Shown: in pieces, positions 8,016-54,121 of the stretch
How the letters are laid out: the number at the start of each line of letters is the position of its first letter
Numbering within the stretch: position 1 is the stretch's first letter
Source: Patescibacteria group bacterium
GTDB lineage: Bacteria; Patescibacteriota; WWE3; UBA101185; UBA10185
Reading direction: 5' to 3'
Assembly: GCA_016926555.1 (NCBI GenBank)
Contig: JAFGOI010000008.1
Coordinates: forward strand, 12,821 to 76,820
DNA: 64,000 nt
Translations under genes and position numbers: made by a program
Notes under the pieces: model-generated
Databases searched by the model: none
Told to the model about the DNA's origin: nothing
Seen by the model: only the letters and a program-made list of their open reading frames with translations

Positions 8016-8044
8016 TTGACTATCGCAGTAACCTATAGTATAAT
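8016..8044 (+). promoter_or_regulatory. Near-consensus sigma70-type promoter (TTGACT-17 bp-TATAAT), preceded by a small palindrome ATCAGAT-T-ATCTGAT at 8001-8015.
   Basis: Read directly: TTGACT at 8016-8021, a 17-nt spacer, then TATAAT at 8039-8044. AGGAGG lies 7 nt before the ATG at 8091. Confidence 0.5.
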
Positions 8045-8090
8045 ATGCCCGTTGACATTTAATATCCACATAACAAAACAGGAGGTAAAA

Positions 8091-8588
8091 ATGACTGCAG
8101 TAATAAGAAGAGGGCTAGTAGGTTTGGGTTTCATTTTTATAGGGGCCTTAATGGGCATGTACTTAGTGCTACAGACGCTGGGGACGTCGTCGTATATCCC
8201 GGTGTCCCAGGGACACCACGGGACACATGACGTCGGTACCGATCCAGCGGCTACGGCCAGGTTTAACCACCTGGTCAATAGCTGGAACGTAGCAAATTTC
8301 AGTAATCCTGAGGATCCAAACAAGATCAACAGGATAGTTTGCTACGTTGTGAAAGAAGGTTCCAAGATAGCCAGGTACGTGGCCTGGCACGGAACCAGAG
8401 TTTCCTCACTGGGCACCCAGTATGGAAACTTAAACTGGTGGCAGCTCGGTGAGGAGGGGTGGGAAGCCTATTCATATGACGACATGAATTTTAGTCGTCT
8501 GGGACTCCCAAAAGATCTTGATCCCCAGCGATTTTCCTGGGAGAACGTTAATTGTGACAGTATGTATCCTCCGGGGGTTTCTCCCTAG
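8091..8588 (+). CDS. Hypothetical signal-anchored or secreted protein (165 aa) with strongly atypical GC content (about 55-60%).
   Basis: Strong Shine-Dalgarno AGGAGG before the ATG at 8091. An N-terminal hydrophobic segment is followed by a soluble domain. GC sampled at 8161-8220 is 60% and at 8341-8400 is 55%, against about 33% in flanking genes. The track ORF starting at 8016 uses TTG inside the promoter and is rejected. Confidence 0.55.
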   Translation: MTAVIRRGLVGLGFIFIGALMGMYLVLQTLGTSSYIPVSQGHHGTHDVGTDPAATARFNHLVNSWNVANFSNPEDPNKINRIVCYVVKEGSKIARYVAWHGTRVSSLGTQYGNLNWWQLGEEGWEAYSYDDMNFSRLGLPKDLDPQRFSWENVNCDSMYPPGVSP

Positions 8589-17046: not shown

Positions 17047-18813
17047 CTATAGGACCTTTTGCATATAAAGACCGTTTTCTTTGTAACCTATATTTCTGTA
17101 GTATTCTTTTGTGCCAACTGCGGATATAATTGATATTCTACTAAAGCCGTGTTTTCTGGATATTTTTTCAGCCTTTTCAATAAGATTCCTTCCCAACCCC
17201 ATATGCTGAGCTACAGCATTTTCCTCAGAGCCTATTCTTATACTTCTGCCGTAAATATGTACTTCTCTAATTATCGCCGAATTATCTAGTTCCGACATGA
17301 ATGGCTTCTTATGCGGTAGAGACAAACGAAGGAAGCCTAATATAATATCACTCTCGCAGATATACTCTATAAAATACTCCGTAGACACATCAGTTTTGTA
17401 TTCTGTGATCTTAAAACTCGATTTTCTTACATTTACGTCCTTGTTTCTTATTTCTCTAAACCTTATCTCTTTTGGCTTCTTATTTTCCCTAAGGAGTTCT
17501 TTTTCCACAATCTGTCTAAAATTTGTTTTCTTGTTTCCAGCAACTATATCGTCTGACGAGATGTCACGCACAACCCGAGTTATCCTGCAATACCGCGGTG
17601 TCGCCATTATTACACTTTTCAAAACCTTAAGAAGTTCTTGTTCAGAATAAGGCTTCCACTTACCTTTTTTGTAATAATCCATGAGTTTTGTCCCATTTAT
17701 AAGCGAGCAGGGATATATTTTTAATTCATCAGGTTTTAGACACTTGTCACTAAATAGTTTTTTAAAGTCTTTAATATCTTTTTCCACATTGGAGCCTAAT
17801 AAGTTAGGCATCCAGTGGGCGTGTATTTTGAAACCTGCCTGTCTGATTAATGAGAACGCTGCCTTTGTTTGTTCTGAAGTATGTCCTCTTTTATTAAGCT
17901 TTAAAATTTCGTCATCCAAACTTTGTACTCCAACTTGAATTTTTGTACCTCCCAGTCTTCTTATTCTTTTCAACTCTTCTTCTGTGACAAAATCTGGTCT
18001 TGTCTCTACAACTAGACCTACACACCGCGTTTTTGATTTTTCGTTTATTTTCTGCGATTTTGACAATTCTTCCCATATGGACCTCTCCTTTTCATTTCTT
18101 TTCAATATTTTTGAAATCTTGCTACTATAATCACTTGTTGCTCCCTCTTCTACCTCTTCTTCGTTATAGGGCATTTCAACATCGACCTCTTTTTTATCTG
18201 AAATAATATCTGGGTTAAAATCATTCATAGCATCGAAACATCTTTTTACGAACCATATTTGATATTCTTCCGGATACACCGTCCATGTCCCGCCTAAGAT
18301 TATCAACTCAACTTTATCCGTAGGATGGCCGATATCATTGTAAGTAACGAGACGGTTGTATGTTTGGAGATACGGATCGAATTTGTTCGCTTCAGCCCTT
18401 TGAGCGCCAGGTTCATCCCTCAGATAGCTTTTGGGCATACTCAAATCACCCGGGCAATAAATACATTCACCCGGGCACGGGTAGGGTTTTGTCAAAACAG
18501 TAACAGGAGTAACGCCAGATATAGTTCGAGTTTTCTTTAAACGTAGTACTTTTAATAATTTTTTCTCTTCGGATTCCGTTAAATTCAACTTGTTCACAGA
18601 TTTCAATTTTCTATATTCTGATAGCACTTTACTCTTCTTAAACACTCTCTTTGTTTCAGAAGTGTATTTCAAAAATATTTTGTGGACAGATTTCTCTGTT
18701 ACTTCGACTAAATCAAGAATCTCTAATATTATTTTCTGTATACTCTCGCGATTTTTCACAGGGGAATTATAAATTAAATATGTAATATAATCACATTGTG
18801 AAACCGGAAACAT
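17047..18813 (-). CDS. Elp3-like radical SAM plus GNAT acetyltransferase (tRNA wobble-uridine modification family).
   Basis: Radical SAM cluster motif CPGECIYCPG, a central VGVQSLDDEIL region and a C-terminal GNAT-like segment, in the Elp3 domain order. Confidence 0.7.
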   Translation of the reverse strand: MFPVSQCDYITYLIYNSPVKNRESIQKIILEILDLVEVTEKSVHKIFLKYTSETKRVFKKSKVLSEYRKLKSVNKLNLTESEEKKLLKVLRLKKTRTISGVTPVTVLTKPYPCPGECIYCPGDLSMPKSYLRDEPGAQRAEANKFDPYLQTYNRLVTYNDIGHPTDKVELIILGGTWTVYPEEYQIWFVKRCFDAMNDFNPDIISDKKEVDVEMPYNEEEVEEGATSDYSSKISKILKRNEKERSIWEELSKSQKINEKSKTRCVGLVVETRPDFVTEEELKRIRRLGGTKIQVGVQSLDDEILKLNKRGHTSEQTKAAFSLIRQAGFKIHAHWMPNLLGSNVEKDIKDFKKLFSDKCLKPDELKIYPCSLINGTKLMDYYKKGKWKPYSEQELLKVLKSVIMATPRYCRITRVVRDISSDDIVAGNKKTNFRQIVEKELLRENKKPKEIRFREIRNKDVNVRKSSFKITEYKTDVSTEYFIEYICESDIILGFLRLSLPHKKPFMSELDNSAIIREVHIYGRSIRIGSEENAVAQHMGLGRNLIEKAEKISRKHGFSRISIISAVGTKEYYRNIGYKENGLYMQKVL

Positions 18814-33386: not shown

Positions 33387-34550
33387 TCAATACCTAATAA
33401 ATTTATGAGTATATGAGGTCGACGTAAGCTCTCCTTCAATTAATTCTTTATATTTTTCCTGTAGATCTTTCAGTGGTATACCGCTTGCCTCTGAGTAAGC
33501 TTTAAAGAAAGTATTTAGTGAATTTACAGCTATTCCACGGGCCATTTCGTGCGCAGTAGTTTCTTCTAAAATATTATTATCAACACAAAAAGTTTGAAAC
33601 GCATGAGTATACAGTTCGGGTATTGACATTACTGTTTGTGATAAATCACAATGGACATCTTCAAGTGTGAAATCTTTAGATTGTAATGGTTTTGCACCTT
33701 CCAAATCAACCAATTCTCCAGTTAGAGTCCAGTTATGAGTTGTAGGATATTTATGAAAGTAACCCGTACCATGAAATCTTGCTAAGTAATTACCCATAAG
33801 TGCGGGAAGATCCTGAGTATAATATTTATAAAATCCCTCCGGAGTAGGTTCAAAGTCAACTCCACGATAATTGTCCATAAAGTACGTTGATAAATTATGC
33901 ATTAACCTTTGTGCTTCAGAAGAATCTATGTCTTTTATAATTTGCGGTGTATCTCTGAGTCTTTCCTGAAATGGAACTATTCTTATGATCTCGTAGTATT
34001 GAACTCTTTCTAAATATACATCTACTTCTTCTTCAGTAAAATCCAGTGTTTGTTTCTCACTGTCTGATCCGAAATATTCTTCCTTTAGGCGTTTTTTTAA
34101 TTCTTCTATAGTTAGTTTTTCACCATCTATATTCATTTTGGACAGTTTTTTTGCAACTACCATTGTCTCGGTCGGCAAACCAGCTGCCCTAACTGACTCT
34201 GATATTTTTTGAAGACGTTCAAGTTTAGAATCATCTGATACATGATATAAGTAATGAGTGCGAAGATGCCCGTAATCCGGATCTCTTTCTAAATAAGGAG
34301 ACTTGCCTTCCGGAACACTTCCTTTCAAAGAGACTGCCGTAAACCTATTACCATGCTCATCCGCCCAAAGAACATTACCATCAATTATCTCACTGCCAAG
34401 AGACCTCATATGATGTTCAGAAACACGGTAGGTATCCATTATCTTTTCGGGTAATTTAAATGGCACACCGGGTGTTCTGAAAAATATACAGTCACTCTCT
34501 GTTGGCACAGGATCGACCTTTTCGTAATTTTCGACTACTCCTAACGCCAT
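33387..34550 (-). CDS. Hypothetical protein (387 aa).
   Basis: Long ORF. No motif recognised. Confidence 0.5.
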   Translation of the reverse strand: MALGVVENYEKVDPVPTESDCIFFRTPGVPFKLPEKIMDTYRVSEHHMRSLGSEIIDGNVLWADEHGNRFTAVSLKGSVPEGKSPYLERDPDYGHLRTHYLYHVSDDSKLERLQKISESVRAAGLPTETMVVAKKLSKMNIDGEKLTIEELKKRLKEEYFGSDSEKQTLDFTEEEVDVYLERVQYYEIIRIVPFQERLRDTPQIIKDIDSSEAQRLMHNLSTYFMDNYRGVDFEPTPEGFYKYYTQDLPALMGNYLARFHGTGYFHKYPTTHNWTLTGELVDLEGAKPLQSKDFTLEDVHCDLSQTVMSIPELYTHAFQTFCVDNNILEETTAHEMARGIAVNSLNTFFKAYSEASGIPLKDLQEKYKELIEGELTSTSYTHKFIRY

Positions 34551-47320: not shown

Positions 47321-48232
47321 ATGCAAGTAAAAGTTGAAAAACAACCTAAATCGACAGTTAAACTTACTGTTACTATACCCTTGAAGGATGTGAAATCCGC
47401 ACGCGAAGAGGTTATTGAGGAACAAGCTAAAACTGCGAATATCCAAGGCTTCAGAAGGGGAATGGCGCCAAAGGAGATTGTAGAGGAAAAATTAGGCATA
47501 GAAAAAATAAAAGGACTGGTAATAAATAAGATTTTAAAAAAAGGTTATACACAAGCACTAAAGGAAAATCATATCGCTGCCATATCAAACCCGAAGGTTG
47601 AGATTAAGGAATTTGATATAAACAAGGATTTCGAATTTACAGCTTTGGTCGCAACAAGGCCGGATGTGAAACTGAAAGACTACAAAAAAAAGCTCAGAAA
47701 AAGATACGAAAACAAAGTTGAACAGACAAAAAAAGATCTTGAAAAGATAAACAAGGAAAAACTAGCAAAGGGCGAAAAACTTGCAGAAGCAAAGGCACAA
47801 CTGAGCACAAGTGATGTTCTAGAAATATTAAACGAAGAATCCGAAGTTGAAATTCCTGATCTACTAATCGAAGAAGAAACGGATAGAATGATGTCTAAAC
47901 TAATAGATCAGACACAAAATCTTGGCATGTCAATAGAACAGTACCTAAGAGCCCAAAACAAAACAGCCGACGAACTGCGGGAAGACTATAGACAGGTAGC
48001 TGAAAAAAGCATAAAAGCCGAATTTGTGCTGGGACATCTAACTCAAGAAGAAAAAGTAGACGCAACGGATGAGGAAATCTTAGAGACTTTTAAAACCGCT
48101 GGATTACCCGACGCAAAAGAAAGACTTAATAATCCTCTAGAAAAAGCTTATGTAAAAAGTATCCTCCAAAAAAATAAATTACTTACAAAATTAATGGAGG
48201 AAGCAGAAGGAGAACAAAAAGATGAGCATTAA
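47321..48232 (+). CDS. tig: Trigger factor, short form lacking the PPIase domain.
   Basis: N-terminal ribosome-binding domain (GFRRGMAPKEIVEEKLG corresponds to the GFRxGxxP motif). The C-terminal arm domain joins directly, and the total is only 303 aa. Followed by clpP as in the conserved tig-clpP arrangement. Confidence 0.75.
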   Translation: MQVKVEKQPKSTVKLTVTIPLKDVKSAREEVIEEQAKTANIQGFRRGMAPKEIVEEKLGIEKIKGLVINKILKKGYTQALKENHIAAISNPKVEIKEFDINKDFEFTALVATRPDVKLKDYKKKLRKRYENKVEQTKKDLEKINKEKLAKGEKLAEAKAQLSTSDVLEILNEESEVEIPDLLIEEETDRMMSKLIDQTQNLGMSIEQYLRAQNKTADELREDYRQVAEKSIKAEFVLGHLTQEEKVDATDEEILETFKTAGLPDAKERLNNPLEKAYVKSILQKNKLLTKLMEEAEGEQKDEH

Positions 48233-48894: not shown

Positions 48895-48971
48895 GACCGG
48901 GTAGCTCAGTTGGTTAGAGCGCCACGTTGACATCGTGGAGGTCACAGGTTCGAGTCCTGTCTCGGTCACCA
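48895..48971 (+). tRNA. tRNA-Val (anticodon GAC).
   Basis: Acceptor GACCGGG/CTCGGTC (one G-U pair), anticodon loop TTGACAT, T-loop GGTTCGAGTCC, CCA encoded. Confidence 0.85.
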
Positions 48972-49139
48972 GAGAAAGGTGTATATCACCTTTAGGTGAT
49001 AGACAGCTCTCTAGTGAGAGAGACTGGACGAGAATAATTCGGACTGAGTGACCCCGAGTATTCGAGGGAACGAGGGAGAGGGGGTTGCGTGCTTTTGTAT
49101 GTTACGAACGAAGAGAGTTACAGACAAAAGACATGTAAC

Positions 49140-49160
49140 CGAGTCCTGTCTCGGTCACCA
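49140..49160 (+). repeat. 21-bp direct repeat CGAGTCCTGTCTCGGTCACCA, identical to the tRNA-Val 3' end (48951-48971). Att-like duplication.
   Basis: Exact copy read in the sequence 169 bp downstream of the tRNA. The intervening 168 bp is GC-rich and contains small hairpins. Confidence 0.7.
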
Positions 49161-49186
49161 TGAACAGGTAACCATAGAAAAGAAAG

Positions 49187-50686
49187 CTAACTAACCCATG
49201 CCAGTATTAAATCCTCAGTAACAGCTTCATGTTCTTGTGAATTTTCAAGATAACTTTCCCAAGCCAGCAAATGCTTTTTTAGTCTTTTACTTAAATACAA
49301 CTTAGAAGTTGCCTCATTATGCCGATATTCCTTGCCTTGGGAGTATGACTGAACAAACCTAGTTATACAATGAGTGCTCACAGCACTTAAGGTGGTACCC
49401 GATTCAGCCGGACTTACAGCTTCACTGGCATCTTCAGGATTGTCCATAGCATCCAGCTCTGCTACTTCCATTTGAATTACTTCAAAATCCTCAGTCTTCT
49501 TGATAATTTTGGGGCTTTCATAATCCTTTTTAATCAATTTGGCATTTACCCAAGCTACATATTCCCTAACATAATCGACCCGTTCCTCTTGCGGCATATC
49601 CTCTAAAACAGGTACTAATTCCGATAATATAGTAGCTTCAGCTTCACCTAATTTTTCATGGGCCACTCTTTCCTGAATTCTTGCGCGCTTGATATCTTCG
49701 TAGACTTCTTCAGCCATATCCCAAATCTCACCTGAAGAAAACGGAGATTGTTGTATATTTACTGTTCTAAACAAATCAATATAGTTATAAAGCACACGCT
49801 GTTCTTCTTCCTCGCTTAATGCCGCGCCATAAGAAGTCTCAAAGTTATCCTGTCCAAGAAGATTTCTGAGTTTTGCTACCTCAGCTCCTAAAACAGAATC
49901 AGATCGGATCAACTCCTTATACCGATCAAACGAGTCTAATCGTCTGAGAACACTTAAATCCGGTATTTCCCGATTTGCGGGTAACACAAGTACTTGTTCT
50001 AGATCGTCCGCAACACTGAGATAAATCTGTTCTTGTTCTACTGCCATTTCCGCGCTTAATACCCGATCTAATCCCACCCGCGCTAATCCTTCCGGAGACA
50101 TTTCATTTAATGCGTTTACAATTTGCCTCACGCCATAGCGCGCGCCTCGGTCTTCACTTAACTGCTTGAACGCTCTTCTGCTGAGCAAACCCAACTTTGC
50201 CTCTTTAATACCAGTTACTTCTCTCACACCCGCCTCATTAAGTCCAACTTCAGCCACATCCGGATCTCTTAATCTCTCAAGATTCCCGGATAATCCGTAT
50301 TTACGCGGTTCGTGAAAAATCCTAACTATAGTCTCTGACAGTTCGCGCTGATCAGTCTCCGCGATTTCCGAACCAGACATAATTAGAGCTTCAAATAAAT
50401 ATCCCGCGACATAAGCTTTTTCAAATGGTTCGGTCGAGGGTCTTTTTTCATCCGGATTAAACTTCTCGAAATTTACCCATGCCTGCTGAATATCCTGCTG
50501 CATTCTGTCAATAAAATCTACATGTAATCTCTCTAATGCCGTTCTTTTCTCTGTAGCACTTTCAAGTCCTCCACCACCAGCCAAAGACTCTAAAATGTCC
50601 ATATATTTATCGACATCAAGACCAGCAGTATCCTCATTCTGACGAGGTTCATCTCTGGGGAACATATCATTATAAAATCCACTCAT
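49187..50686 (-). CDS. Hypothetical acidic protein (499 aa) of atypical composition (about 44% GC).
   Basis: Long ORF, no transmembrane segment, no recognised motif. GC sampled 42-47% against a genome background of about 33%. Confidence 0.5.
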   Translation of the reverse strand: MSGFYNDMFPRDEPRQNEDTAGLDVDKYMDILESLAGGGGLESATEKRTALERLHVDFIDRMQQDIQQAWVNFEKFNPDEKRPSTEPFEKAYVAGYLFEALIMSGSEIAETDQRELSETIVRIFHEPRKYGLSGNLERLRDPDVAEVGLNEAGVREVTGIKEAKLGLLSRRAFKQLSEDRGARYGVRQIVNALNEMSPEGLARVGLDRVLSAEMAVEQEQIYLSVADDLEQVLVLPANREIPDLSVLRRLDSFDRYKELIRSDSVLGAEVAKLRNLLGQDNFETSYGAALSEEEEQRVLYNYIDLFRTVNIQQSPFSSGEIWDMAEEVYEDIKRARIQERVAHEKLGEAEATILSELVPVLEDMPQEERVDYVREYVAWVNAKLIKKDYESPKIIKKTEDFEVIQMEVAELDAMDNPEDASEAVSPAESGTTLSAVSTHCITRFVQSYSQGKEYRHNEATSKLYLSKRLKKHLLAWESYLENSQEHEAVTEDLILAWVS

Positions 50687-50744
50687 AAAAAAATTATATT
50701 ATGTCAAGTTGAAAATAACAAAAATATAATATATCATCCTCACG

Positions 50745-51269
50745 ATGACCTATAATATACCAGACTACAAAAGGGCAGTAATTGAGGCTGAAAAAATCCT
50801 AGATGAACTTGGATATGATGAGCCACCTGTATCACCACTGGAGATCGCTGAATATATTGGGCTTTCAGTTGTTCAAAATGTAAGTCTACAGTTACCAACT
50901 CCAACTTATATAGAAAACAAAAGGGAAATCGCTGCCAGGCTGGACGGACTTAATAAAACAATCTTTGTGAATACACAACAGCCCCCTAAAAACATGATAT
51001 TTGCAATAGCTCACCAAGTAGGTTACTTCGTGCTTAACAAGCAAAAAGTTGTAACAGATATCAATTCTGTTCGACCATTATTAAGAGGCAAAGAATTATT
51101 AAACCCAAACATAGATGAAATGAAAGAGGCTTACCATTTTGCGGCTAATCTGATGGTGCCATTTGATATGCTAAAAAAATATCGGAAAGAGTCAAATTCT
51201 GTGCTATCTACTATTTTTACGGTTCCCGTTACGGTAATTAATTATCAATTACAGGAGTTCCGAAAATGA
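50745..51269 (+). CDS. ImmA/IrrE-family (DUF955) metallopeptidase-like protein with a degenerate zinc motif (HQVGY instead of HExxH).
   Basis: PLEIAEYIGLSVV..., IFVNTQQPPKNMIFAIAHQVGYFVLN aligns to the ImmA HELGH region, and AANLMVPFDML aligns to the C-terminal helix. Confidence 0.45.
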   Translation: MTYNIPDYKRAVIEAEKILDELGYDEPPVSPLEIAEYIGLSVVQNVSLQLPTPTYIENKREIAARLDGLNKTIFVNTQQPPKNMIFAIAHQVGYFVLNKQKVVTDINSVRPLLRGKELLNPNIDEMKEAYHFAANLMVPFDMLKKYRKESNSVLSTIFTVPVTVINYQLQEFRK

Positions 51270-51586
51270 TCCAACACGACAACAAGGATATTAAAGAAGT
51301 AATAAGTGACATTACTATTGAATCTCAAAAAAAGCAGCTTGAGATAAGAGAAAAGGAAGAAGTTTTGGAAATGAGACGTAAATGGGCAAATTTCTTTAAG
51401 GGAATCGTGTTAGTTATACTTTTTTTTGAAATCATTATCACATTTTTAGTCGGCTCAAATCTTATGGTTTTTGAAGATGAGTGGTTCTTAAGGATTATTA
51501 TCACAGGGGGATTTGCACAAATAATGGTAATGCCTTTCACACTAACTAAATTTTTATTTAACGTTGAAAACAAAGATACAAAGTAA
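51266..51586 (+). CDS. Small membrane protein (106 aa), translationally coupled (ATGA) to the ImmA-like gene.
   Basis: Charged N-terminus and two hydrophobic helices. Confidence 0.4.
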   Translation: MIQHDNKDIKEVISDITIESQKKQLEIREKEEVLEMRRKWANFFKGIVLVILFFEIIITFLVGSNLMVFEDEWFLRIIITGGFAQIMVMPFTLTKFLFNVENKDTK

Positions 51587-51676
51587 AATAAACTAACGAC
51601 CTTCTATTGTCCTTTATCCAGCTACAATGCGGATACTCTCTTGCTATATGAAACCTAATATCATAATATTACTTAT

Positions 51677-54073
51677 ATGCCCGTTCAAGAAAGCATAAGT
51701 TCATTGGCTTCCAATTATCCTGGACCGGGTACCCCAGGATACGAACTTGTACCTCCACCTCTTCCAGTAGGAGATCCTCAAAAAGAACAACCTGGCGTGC
51801 GCAGAGAACTCCCAGCAGACGTGCAAGGAATCATTGATGCAACCGGACTTGAAGTACGTGATGCGGAGATAATGCCTACGGGCATATCCCAAACCCCCGC
51901 AGAATCGCGGGAACAACCCGTAAGTCTTCTTCATAGGATTAAACAGCAAGAACGTAAGGCCATGGAACAGGCTAAGGCCCCCACAGAGCAAGAGAGACAA
52001 GCTTTACAAAATGCACGTCTTGCAGGTGAAGCTTTTCAATTAGTAGTCGATAAATGGAGACGTGAGGGTGTTAGTACCACGTGGCTAGAAACTCTAAGAT
52101 TTGCTGATGTTCAATTCATAGTAGACCAGCTAAAAGAAATTGAGAGTCATGGAATTCATGTGAACGGAAATATTAGACAGGCTATTTCAGAAGGGGTACT
52201 CAATCTTCAAAATTCCGGTCCTTATTACTATCTGGCTGAAACACCTAATAAAGCTGCTGACCAGGCAGAACAACAAGCTCAAGACGAGAAACCAATTACG
52301 TTGGAGCAGTTCAATCAGACAGTAGCGGAACTAAAACTAAGAAGACAAGACGAATTAGCCGCTATAAACGGGGAATTGGCGGAAGATGGAGTATCAGGAT
52401 ATGACGCCATAAAAAGTCTATGCAGAAACACTTCACTGAAAGCCGGTCTAGAACTAGATCCTCTGGTTATACAATTAAGTAACAAACCCGAACTATACGG
52501 AGCGCTTAAACATTCTGTTGAAGAAACAATATGGAATGGTATGGAAAAATCTGGATTCCTTAAAATACCTGACGACAAGGATGGAATCTGGCGACGGAAA
52601 CTAGAACTGGGCGCAAAAATATCTCGGGCAAAATATACGACACTGCGTGAACAGCTTGAAGATGCTGATGTGATGGAACTCCCTCCTGGAACTCAATATT
52701 ATTTAGCTGCTGAAGCATTAGGTGAAGATATTAGGAGGATAAGAGAAACAAGTGATTTCGGGCCACTTCGACAAATTGCGAGACACGCCCTTAACTGGGT
52801 ACACGAAAGAGATGAATTCGCAGGAATTGATGCAGAACGAGGAGTATACAACGGAGAAGCAATAACTAGAATAGCCACGGCATCGAATATGCCTCATTTA
52901 TTCCCAGGTGTTGCTCAACATAGGATTGATGCACAGAAACCGCCAGGAGTATATAAAAGAGCATTCGTGGATATATACAATGATGGTAGCGCGTGGCAGA
53001 CTCAGGCAGAAAAACAAACCCGATCAACGGATCCCAGCATAGAAACAACACAGACTTGGGCAGCCCAGCTTCAGGAAATGAGACAACTAGTCGAGCTAAC
53101 AGCGGGCACTCCTGAGGAGGCTATAGAAACCTTAGCCCAAATTGAGGTCCTGGAAGCATTAGCATTTGCATTGGAACAAGTCCAAGTTGCTGACATGGAA
53201 AAAAAGATAGAGGAGAGAAGAGCAATATTTAAACAAGCATTAGGTGACGGATATGGGTGGTTTGACGCAGATTCCGCAGAGAACACAATGAACGAGGCAC
53301 TAAACAGATGCAGACCTCCTAATACACACAACCTCGAACTACTTTTTATGAACCCTGCAGACACAAATGAGCGCGGTCAATCAGAAATACTAGTTGACTC
53401 TGAAACTATTCGAAACAGAGTTGAGAGCCACTTTGGCACTTTATATGGTGGTCGAGAAAGCGCAACTTTCCGAGAACTGGGTATACATCTTGGGGATCAG
53501 TTTTTTGAAAACGTACCCCTCTTACTAAATATTCTAATTGAGGGAGGTATGTCCCCCACACAATCAGAGGAACTAGTAACTTATATGTTAATACAACACT
53601 TTGAGGCTGAAGCTCAAAGCCATAGAATGGGCCAGGAGCAAATGCAAAGTGCAACAATAGCAGCAGATTTAGGAAAAGTCAGAGGTTTATTCGATGAAAT
53701 TCAAAAAGAAGCTGAAGAGGGAACTCCGCCTGAACAAATACGTGCCGGTAGAGGAATGCACACTGTTCTAGACCTATCCGAGGAACGATGGACACAAGCT
53801 AAAGAAACCATTGCTCTACTTATTACTAAAGCGGAAGCTGCTAATACGAGACGTTGTGAACAGGCATTGGAACAGATGGAAGAGGCACGTGGGCAAATAG
53901 CTAGGGAATCAGAAACCCCGCAAACTACTGAAGCGGACACAGTTAACACTAGATTATCCGCCGTCCTAGAAAGAATTTCACCTGAGCGACTAAATTATGC
54001 TTTAGGACCAGCAGGATGGCTAGCTGCGCGAGAAGAGGAAAAGATAGCAAAAGAACAAAATGAGCTAACCTAA
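51677..54073 (+). CDS. Large hypothetical soluble acidic protein (798 aa) of atypical composition (about 47% GC).
   Basis: Long ORF without transmembrane segments or recognisable catalytic motifs. Glu/Gln/Ala-rich. Confidence 0.55.
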   Translation: MPVQESISSLASNYPGPGTPGYELVPPPLPVGDPQKEQPGVRRELPADVQGIIDATGLEVRDAEIMPTGISQTPAESREQPVSLLHRIKQQERKAMEQAKAPTEQERQALQNARLAGEAFQLVVDKWRREGVSTTWLETLRFADVQFIVDQLKEIESHGIHVNGNIRQAISEGVLNLQNSGPYYYLAETPNKAADQAEQQAQDEKPITLEQFNQTVAELKLRRQDELAAINGELAEDGVSGYDAIKSLCRNTSLKAGLELDPLVIQLSNKPELYGALKHSVEETIWNGMEKSGFLKIPDDKDGIWRRKLELGAKISRAKYTTLREQLEDADVMELPPGTQYYLAAEALGEDIRRIRETSDFGPLRQIARHALNWVHERDEFAGIDAERGVYNGEAITRIATASNMPHLFPGVAQHRIDAQKPPGVYKRAFVDIYNDGSAWQTQAEKQTRSTDPSIETTQTWAAQLQEMRQLVELTAGTPEEAIETLAQIEVLEALAFALEQVQVADMEKKIEERRAIFKQALGDGYGWFDADSAENTMNEALNRCRPPNTHNLELLFMNPADTNERGQSEILVDSETIRNRVESHFGTLYGGRESATFRELGIHLGDQFFENVPLLLNILIEGGMSPTQSEELVTYMLIQHFEAEAQSHRMGQEQMQSATIAADLGKVRGLFDEIQKEAEEGTPPEQIRAGRGMHTVLDLSEERWTQAKETIALLITKAEAANTRRCEQALEQMEEARGQIARESETPQTTEADTVNTRLSAVLERISPERLNYALGPAGWLAAREEEKIAKEQNELT

Positions 54074-54121
54074 CCCAAAATCTACTGCACCATAATCTCA
54101 TTCAAATGTTATTATGTTTAT

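Follow-up and report, generated by a model that had tools for sequence, protein, structure and literature searches.

A tRNA-Val 3' end duplicated across 168 bp in a WWE3 bacterium: a candidate relic of site-specific integration

Why should the last nucleotides of an intact tRNA gene stand a second time, without a single mismatch, a short distance downstream of that gene? This question is raised by a locus in a 64,000-nt stretch from a Patescibacteria bacterium (GenBank assembly GCA_016926555.1, contig JAFGOI010000008.1, positions 12,821 to 76,820; the whole stretch is called the window here), in which the final 21 nt of a tRNA-Val gene recur behind a spacer of 168 bp. An earlier note on this DNA regarded the arrangement as the signature of integration into a tRNA 3' end. 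On balance, and with considerable doubt remaining, we take the locus to be a solitary relic of site-specific integration at the tRNA-Val 3' end, resembling the microCIMEs of streptococci that are described below. Four features, given here with the roles of attachment (att) sites that they would have in such an event, are at the centre of the question.

48895-48971, + strand: tRNA-Val(GAC) gene, intact and with encoded CCA, the target gene that would bear attB (ARAGORN; Rfam RF00005, 71.5 bits).
48951-48971, + strand: core copy 1, attL-like, tRNA positions C56-A76 (exact 21-mer; numbering read from the sequence).
48972-49139, no strand: gene-less 168-bp segment, 46% GC, read as a remnant (putative former P' and P arms), with no open reading frame (ORF) above 48 aa and no Rfam match.
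49140-49160, + strand: core copy 2, attR-like, presumed displaced tRNA-Val 3' fragment (exact 21-mer).

The repeat itself is exact, as had been claimed. The last 21 nt of tRNA-Val, CGAGTCCTGTCTCGGTCACCA, have exactly two occurrences, each of them on the + strand (48951-48971 and 49140-49160), with 189 bp from start to start and the previously described 168-bp segment (48972-49139) between them. No further copy with up to 3 mismatches exists elsewhere in the 64-kb window, and 100 dinucleotide shuffles gave 0 matches to the 21-mer, which places the repeat far beyond chance. Copy 1 covers the last 5 nt of the T-loop, the 3' strand of the T-stem, the 3' strand of the acceptor, the discriminator base and CCA. 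The first two bases of the 7-nt T-loop thus fall outside the block of identity, which opens with the third and closes precisely with the encoded CCA. The flanks are different on both sides, with GGTT before copy 1 and GTAAC before copy 2, and with GAGAAAGG after copy 1 and TGAACAGG after copy 2; no residual similarity is left outside the block on either side.

Is this structure a product of the assembly? The source is a metagenome-assembled genome, and a chimera could have formed at a tRNA common to several community members. In the Logan assembly of run SRR13394437, contig L001 carries the 3' half of the tRNA, the 168-bp segment, copy 2 and the downstream ORF in one unbroken piece and with an identical sequence. 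The Logan contigs L001 and L002 do break within tRNA-Val, which would favour an artefact; the break, with an overlap of 6 nt, lies in the anticodon region (window positions about 48925-48930), away from both 21-mers. With the Logan k-mer of 31, a repeat of 21 bp is the shorter of the two and no false join is expected. The GenBank and Logan assemblies share the same reads and are therefore not fully independent. As far as short-read assembly shows, the repeat structure is real, and an artefact or chimera can hardly be credited. L001 also passes copy 2 unbranched, so that no abundant empty-site variant is evident in the SRR13394437 sample.

What kind of event leaves such a pair? Upstream of copy 2, neither the T-stem nor the acceptor 5' strand was found by sequence, ARAGORN or Rfam, and copy 2 is therefore not a tRNA. 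Since the flanks have no similarity, copy 2 is not the end of a decayed duplicate tRNA, and the borders are of the recombination type; the sharp limits of the identity exclude a decayed tandem tRNA duplicate. A miniature inverted-repeat transposable element is excluded by the absence of terminal inverted repeats, and a transposon target-site duplication by the same absence together with the length of the duplication, 21 bp being too long. A tmRNA and a group I intron are excluded by the ARAGORN and Rfam results. The co-oriented copies, the identity from the T-loop (C56) to CCA and the sharp borders together have the anatomy of an att pair. Borders placed precisely on the T-loop and the CCA end would be explained by the need of an evolved attP to restore the tRNA. 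The signature recognised in the earlier note is thus retained in its anatomy, and its mechanism is set out here as a proposal.

In that proposal, a mobile element with an attP holding the last 21 nt of tRNA-Val would have integrated into the 3' part of the gene by a tyrosine-integrase type of reaction, the crossover taking place inside the 21 bp of identity, of which the 5' border lies in the T-loop. Through integration the tRNA would have been made whole again (copy 1, attL), while its original 3' end would have been displaced downstream (copy 2, attR). The interior of the element, including its integrase, may later have been deleted, or the element may have been gene-less from the start; what is left would be two intact cores and, separating them, 168 bp that once belonged to the arms. 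The junctions to be expected are ...CACAGGTT-core-TGAACAGGTAACC for the empty site and ...GACATGTAAC-core-GAGAAAGGTG for attP or a 189-bp circle. Among the options that the earlier note had offered, the best fit is a decayed integration or a miniature integrative element. Today the relic is probably without activity, and its hairpins would at most separate the transcripts of tRNA-Val and of a convergent 499-aa gene on the other side of copy 2.

When did the duplication arise? The nearest ClpP sequences belong to candidate division WWE3 of the candidate phyla radiation (CPR; Patescibacteria), with 69-79% identity. Close relatives were sought by a 90%-identity cluster look-up for 10 flanking proteins and by a ClpP homologue search. 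Each of the 10 flanking or block proteins looked up forms a 90%-identity cluster by itself within a set of about 15 billion proteins, and their only records are the Patescibacteria genome assembly itself (locus tags JXA34_*) and the Logan contigs of SRR13394437. Because there is no close relative, there is no empty site to be found. The local gene order is DUF2207, trigger factor, ClpP, tRNA-Val, the spacer with copy 2 and the 499-aa ORF (- strand), followed by an M78/ImmA-IrrE peptidase, a 106-aa membrane protein, a 798-aa ORF, a 306-aa ORF, TruB (- strand), ThrRS, IF3, L20 and PheST. The order trigger factor-ClpP-tRNA-Val is kept in every WWE3 relative fetched. In the relatives with conserved ClpP-tRNA-Val, no duplicate of at least 12 nt of their own tRNA-Val 3' end is present within the fetched loci, which reach at most 10 kb past tRNA-Val and often much less. 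The duplication is therefore a derived, lineage-specific event. The trigger factor of the window (47321-48232, + strand) measures 303 aa; Trigger_N and Trigger_C are present and a PPIase (FKBP) domain is missing, and the trigger factor of the WWE3 relatives is likewise short, at 289-293 aa.

The order of genes further downstream can also be compared. In two relatives, the complete curated WWE3 genome L003 and L009, tRNA-Val is followed by 0-1 small gene and then by a homologue of the 306-aa ORF, TruB and ThrRS; relative to these two, 48972-54121 is extra DNA. Across L003, L006, L007, L009 and L029-L037, the interval from tRNA-Val to the 306-aa ORF, TruB and ThrRS is variable in gene content, with 0-5 unrelated ordinary genes per WWE3 lineage. 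It contains NUDIX, MFS, DUF389 and a short-chain dehydrogenase in one lineage, aldose epimerase, VTT and adenine glycosylase in another, HD and LPG synthase in a further one, and in one case an ATP synthase operon. No integrase and no tRNA fragment were found in this interval in the relatives examined. The idea of tRNA-Val as an integrase hotspot in WWE3 was accordingly rejected, the genes of the variable interval being ordinary ones. As a separate observation, L003 (RIFOXYC1_FULL_40_10) carries between pheS and pheT, at 17481-17556 (- strand), an ARAGORN "tRNA-???" with a two-base anticodon, and the window has no gap at the equivalent position.

What does the enclosed segment contain? It has no ORF longer than 48 aa and no Rfam match even at E<=10, and only the tRNA itself matches. 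The best other Rfam match is mir-743, with 26.6 bits against a threshold of 67 (Rfam 15), so that no described non-coding RNA family is represented. Comparison with the WWE3 relatives, the remainder of the window, phages, plasmids, IMG/VR and JGI metagenomes gave no DNA similar to the spacer. The segment had been called GC-rich; it does lie above the window mean (46% vs 37%) and in the top 5% of all 168-bp segments, and the elevation is mild only. Its repeats and hairpins are as follows.

48975-49001, no strand: hairpin cluster directly after the tRNA, AAAGGTG/CACCTTT competing with TATCACC/GGTGATA.
49007-49022: CTCTCT/AGAGAG hairpin.
49084-49139, + strand: long imperfect hairpin abutting copy 2, with G-U pairs on the + strand (minimum free energy and centroid structures).
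49135-49158, no strand: imperfect 9-6-9 inverted repeat GTAACCGAG-TCCTGT-CTCGGTCAC, made up of the spacer end and copy 2.

Both hairpins named previously are present, AAAGGTG-TATAT-CACCTTT at 48975-48993 and GTTAC/GTAAC inside the long hairpin, of which the pairing is weaker on the - strand. GGTGATA is found in both orientations within the cluster (48984, - strand; 48995, + strand), these being 2 of its 9 occurrences in the whole window. The 9-6-9 inverted repeat is laid out like the core site of a recombinase. On the - strand the same positions give a weak intrinsic terminator score, 26 nt past the stop of the 499-aa ORF; with 1 terminator-like site observed vs 1.8 expected by chance, this is not significant alone. 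The spacer also contains four inverted near-copies of the core half-site CTCGGTCAC (post-hoc P ~0.0005). A fair test, which used all core 9-mers and dinucleotide-preserving shuffles, gave 16 vs 8.5 +/- 4.6 expected (P = 0.075); enrichment was not upheld. The excess is owed mostly to the purine-rich composition of the spacer and carries no weight here. Folding z-scores are -4.3 for the 168 nt, -5.3 for the 189 nt and -5.2 for the minus strand, and no shuffle folded as well. The signal is equal on both strands and is therefore a matter of inverted repeats at the DNA level, which gives no pointer to a transcribed strand.

Can the locus be placed among known systems? The microCIMEs of Streptococcus salivarius are gene-less, att-flanked remnants, 130-220 bp long, of ICEs (integrative, conjugative elements) or IMEs (elements that integrate and can be mobilized), and the CIMEs (cis-mobilizable elements) of S. 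agalactiae are found at the 3' end of a tRNA-Lys gene (PMC7563491). As in microCIMEs and CIMEs, direct repeats occur here at the 3' end of a conserved target gene, with 21 bp exact and a presumed att function. As in microCIMEs, the segment is short, 168 bp or 189 bp with one core, it contains no recombination or transfer gene, no ORF above 48 aa and no Pfam or Rfam match, and in particular no integrase, relaxase, coupling protein or VirB4, by which, with the length of 130-220 bp, microCIMEs are delimited. Unlike the known microCIMEs, which were recognised by their similarity to a resident ICE or IME and by their tandem accretion with it, this segment has no parent or cognate integrase that could be found, no ICE or IME, such as would be needed for cis-mobilization after accretion, adjoins it, and the host is a CPR (WWE3) genome. 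The tDNA islands of the Islander algorithm are recognised by a regenerated tDNA and a co-oriented displaced 3' fragment downstream with identity to the tRNA 3' end (PMC4383910). An intact tRNA gene and a co-oriented 21-nt fragment are present here on the same replicon. Unlike such islands, the interval has no tyrosine integrase (PF00589), as it has no ORF above 48 aa, and its 168 bp lie outside the length range of 2-200 kb, so that the algorithm would discard the locus. In mycobacteriophage Ms6, attP and attB share a 26-bp core in tRNA-Ala of the T-loop class (PMC1762012, citing Williams 2002 for the classification). The core here, at 21 bp, likewise extends from the T-loop region via the acceptor 3' strand to the tRNA 3' end. 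Set against T-loop-class att sites, the block at C56-A76 reaches exactly to the CCA end but lacks T54 and T55 of the loop, and no cognate tyrosine integrase is found in the 64-kb window.

Was an integrase or a third core left anywhere nearby? Pfam integrases, resolvases and transposases are absent among about 50 window ORFs scanned (about 135 aa and longer), and searches with Pfam, PHROGs and PADLOC found no recombinase in the ORFs of the downstream block; a motif regular expression gave none either. A 387-aa ORF beside tRNA-Leu (33387-34550) was inspected as a candidate, and its sequence appears unlike that of an integrase. No third copy of the 21-mer was detected, either in the whole window at up to 7 mismatches or by Smith-Waterman comparison with every intergenic junction. 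The copy that was to bound the supposed foreign segment, as suggested earlier, is therefore missing: the expected right junction, 54074-54121, scores at background, its core match being no better than 85% of random tiles. The 12-mer TCTACTGCACCA at 54084-54095, tried as a degenerate third core, matches at 8/12 bases, which is background.

The DNA beyond copy 2 was described in the earlier note as compositionally foreign. Two features are listed for it.

49161-54121, no strand: block of four lineage-specific ORFs, encoding 499 aa, an M78 peptidase, a 106-aa membrane protein and 798 aa.
49187-50686, - strand: 499-aa ORF, convergent with tRNA-Val, outside the repeat-bounded segment.

This 5-kb block is absent at the same position in L003 and L009, lies outside the att pair and has no attR. 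The GC contents of the 499-aa and 798-aa ORFs are 0.415 and 0.442, raised because of the amino-acid composition and not by foreign codon usage. Their GC contents at third codon positions (GC3), 0.333 and 0.305, are native compared with the window mean of 0.34, and the description does not hold. The block is a separate, compositionally native, lineage-specific gene set. A word-indexed search of 5.8 billion proteins left the 499-aa and 798-aa products as ORFans, each of them a singleton. An exhaustive HMMER search gave 68 distant metagenomic homologues of the 499-aa protein, which belongs to a CPR-only family of ~290-aa proteins with the motif E...PD...ExK...Q (PD-(D/E)xK-like). Both homologue contigs long enough to show neighbouring genes (2/2) have ordinary chromosomal contexts. 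Its AlphaFold (AF2) model has a pLDDT of 80.8 and no significant PDB neighbour. As a novel recombinase this neighbour was rejected on these contexts, on the motif and on a predicted model that appears unlike a recombinase fold. The M78 peptidase, the 106-aa membrane protein and the acidic 798-aa ORFan span 50745-54073 (+ strand); the ImmA/IrrE M78 peptidase has a weak CapP-like PADLOC match (3.7e-7), and judging from sequence the three may together make up a small module for regulation or defence. In composition, the ORF that departs most from the rest of the window is found elsewhere, at 8016-8588 (+ strand; 190 aa, GC 0.479, GC3 0.537, z = +4.2, no Pfam match), and this ORF looks more foreign than anything beside the tRNA-Val repeat.

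Several observations weigh against a relic of site-specific integration. The 64-kb window yielded neither an integrase nor a recombinase of another kind. Exact-pattern scans of the core and three spacer segments in IMG/VR and JGI metagenomes, and blastn against phages and plasmids, brought up no parental element, no attP and nothing related to the spacer; the host and its mobilome are not sampled elsewhere, and this absence of similar DNA is therefore uninformative on descent from an ICE or IME. No empty site was found, and the organism is a singleton in the databases searched. The microCIMEs of S. salivarius were seen solely as tandem partners of ICEs or IMEs, in positions distal to the target gene, whereas the spacer here is solitary and adjacent to the tRNA. 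The Ms6 core holds the whole 7-nt T-loop and the 5' strand of the T-stem, whereas the identity here omits T54 and T55. Lastly, the spacer folds unusually well (z -4.3 to -5.3), as a pure relic need not.

The rival explanations can be weighed on the same evidence. One of them would extend the relic interpretation and does not contradict it: the locus may be a tandem array, in which the block 49161-54121 would be an older island with copy 2 as its attL and a decayed attR, and the 168 bp would represent a later, second integration into the regenerated tRNA. The four ORFs do look inserted with respect to the gene order of L003 and L009, two of the encoded proteins (499 aa and 798 aa) are singletons among the 5.8 billion, an ImmA/IrrE M78 peptidase is typical cargo of mobile elements, and newer elements are known to enter beside the target gene and push older ones away (PMC7563491). 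Against this stand the absence of a third copy, with 54074-54121 at background, the absence of an integrase, and the native GC3 of the block. Moreover, the interval holds different ordinary genes of housekeeping type in every other WWE3 lineage and never an integrase; as it varies in all lineages, ordinary gene turnover explains the block equally well, and a tandem array is considered unlikely. Insertion without a dedicated integrase is a further alternative, whether by Campbell-type recombination, by homology-facilitated illegitimate recombination or by repair and slippage, through which a small piece of foreign DNA that happened to carry a tRNA-Val 3' end would have entered. It would agree with the lack of an integrase among the window ORFs scanned and of any related mobile element in IMG/VR, JGI metagenomes, phages and plasmids, and tRNA 3' ends are conserved enough for microhomology between lineages. 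The two borders of identity, both at tRNA landmarks, are not expected of random microhomology, and there are no terminal inverted repeats, while 21 bp is too long for a transposase target-site duplication and below the usual length for efficient RecA recombination. For these reasons such an insertion is thought decidedly unlikely.

A functional role of the DNA has also to be weighed. The 168 nt and copy 2 may form a structured RNA or regulatory element co-transcribed with tRNA-Val, acting as a mimic of the tRNA-Val 3' end, or they may serve on the minus strand as the 3' untranslated region or terminator of the 499-aa gene, the 21 nt then being perfectly antisense to the tRNA-Val 3' end. The z-scores of -4.3 (168 nt), -5.3 (189 nt) and -5.2 (minus strand), which no shuffle equalled, point in this direction, as do a GC content above the genome mean, like that of non-coding RNAs in AT-rich genomes, a promoter-like site upstream of the tRNA with no + strand terminator before copy 2, and a minus-strand hairpin with a U-tract 26 nt past the stop of the 499-aa ORF. 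On the other hand, there is no Rfam match even at E<=10, the two strands fold equally well and give no information on the strand, and the strands with which copy 2 could pair into a T-arm or an acceptor helix are missing. The terminator-like match is within chance expectation, and no homologue was found from which conservation or covariation could be drawn; a functional RNA is accordingly regarded as improbable. A living unit is slightly more doubtful again: the 189 bp might be a gene-less mini-element still excised, and reintegrated at tRNA-Val, by an integrase encoded elsewhere in the ~1-Mb genome or on a phage, or its strongly folding transcript, with an exact copy of the tRNA-Val 3' end as its terminus, might imitate a tRNA end or pair with the tRNA as an antisense RNA, and we give this a quite small chance.

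If the locus is indeed a relic of site-specific integration at the tRNA-Val 3' end, what does it imply? Most likely it is a known and ordinary kind of genomic scar, seen here as a new instance with a host from an unusual lineage (WWE3/CPR), and no question of long standing is opened by it. It carries a caution, that a tRNA fragment may have lineage-specific genes beside it which need not lie within the element responsible for it. Stubs of this type are lost to island finders, since they pass neither the integrase filter nor the length filter. The relic would, if correctly interpreted, provide modest direct evidence of tRNA-targeting site-specific integration in a Katanobacteria/WWE3 (CPR) genome, and it would suggest that integration events there can decay to a gene-less, att-bounded stub of ~170 bp.
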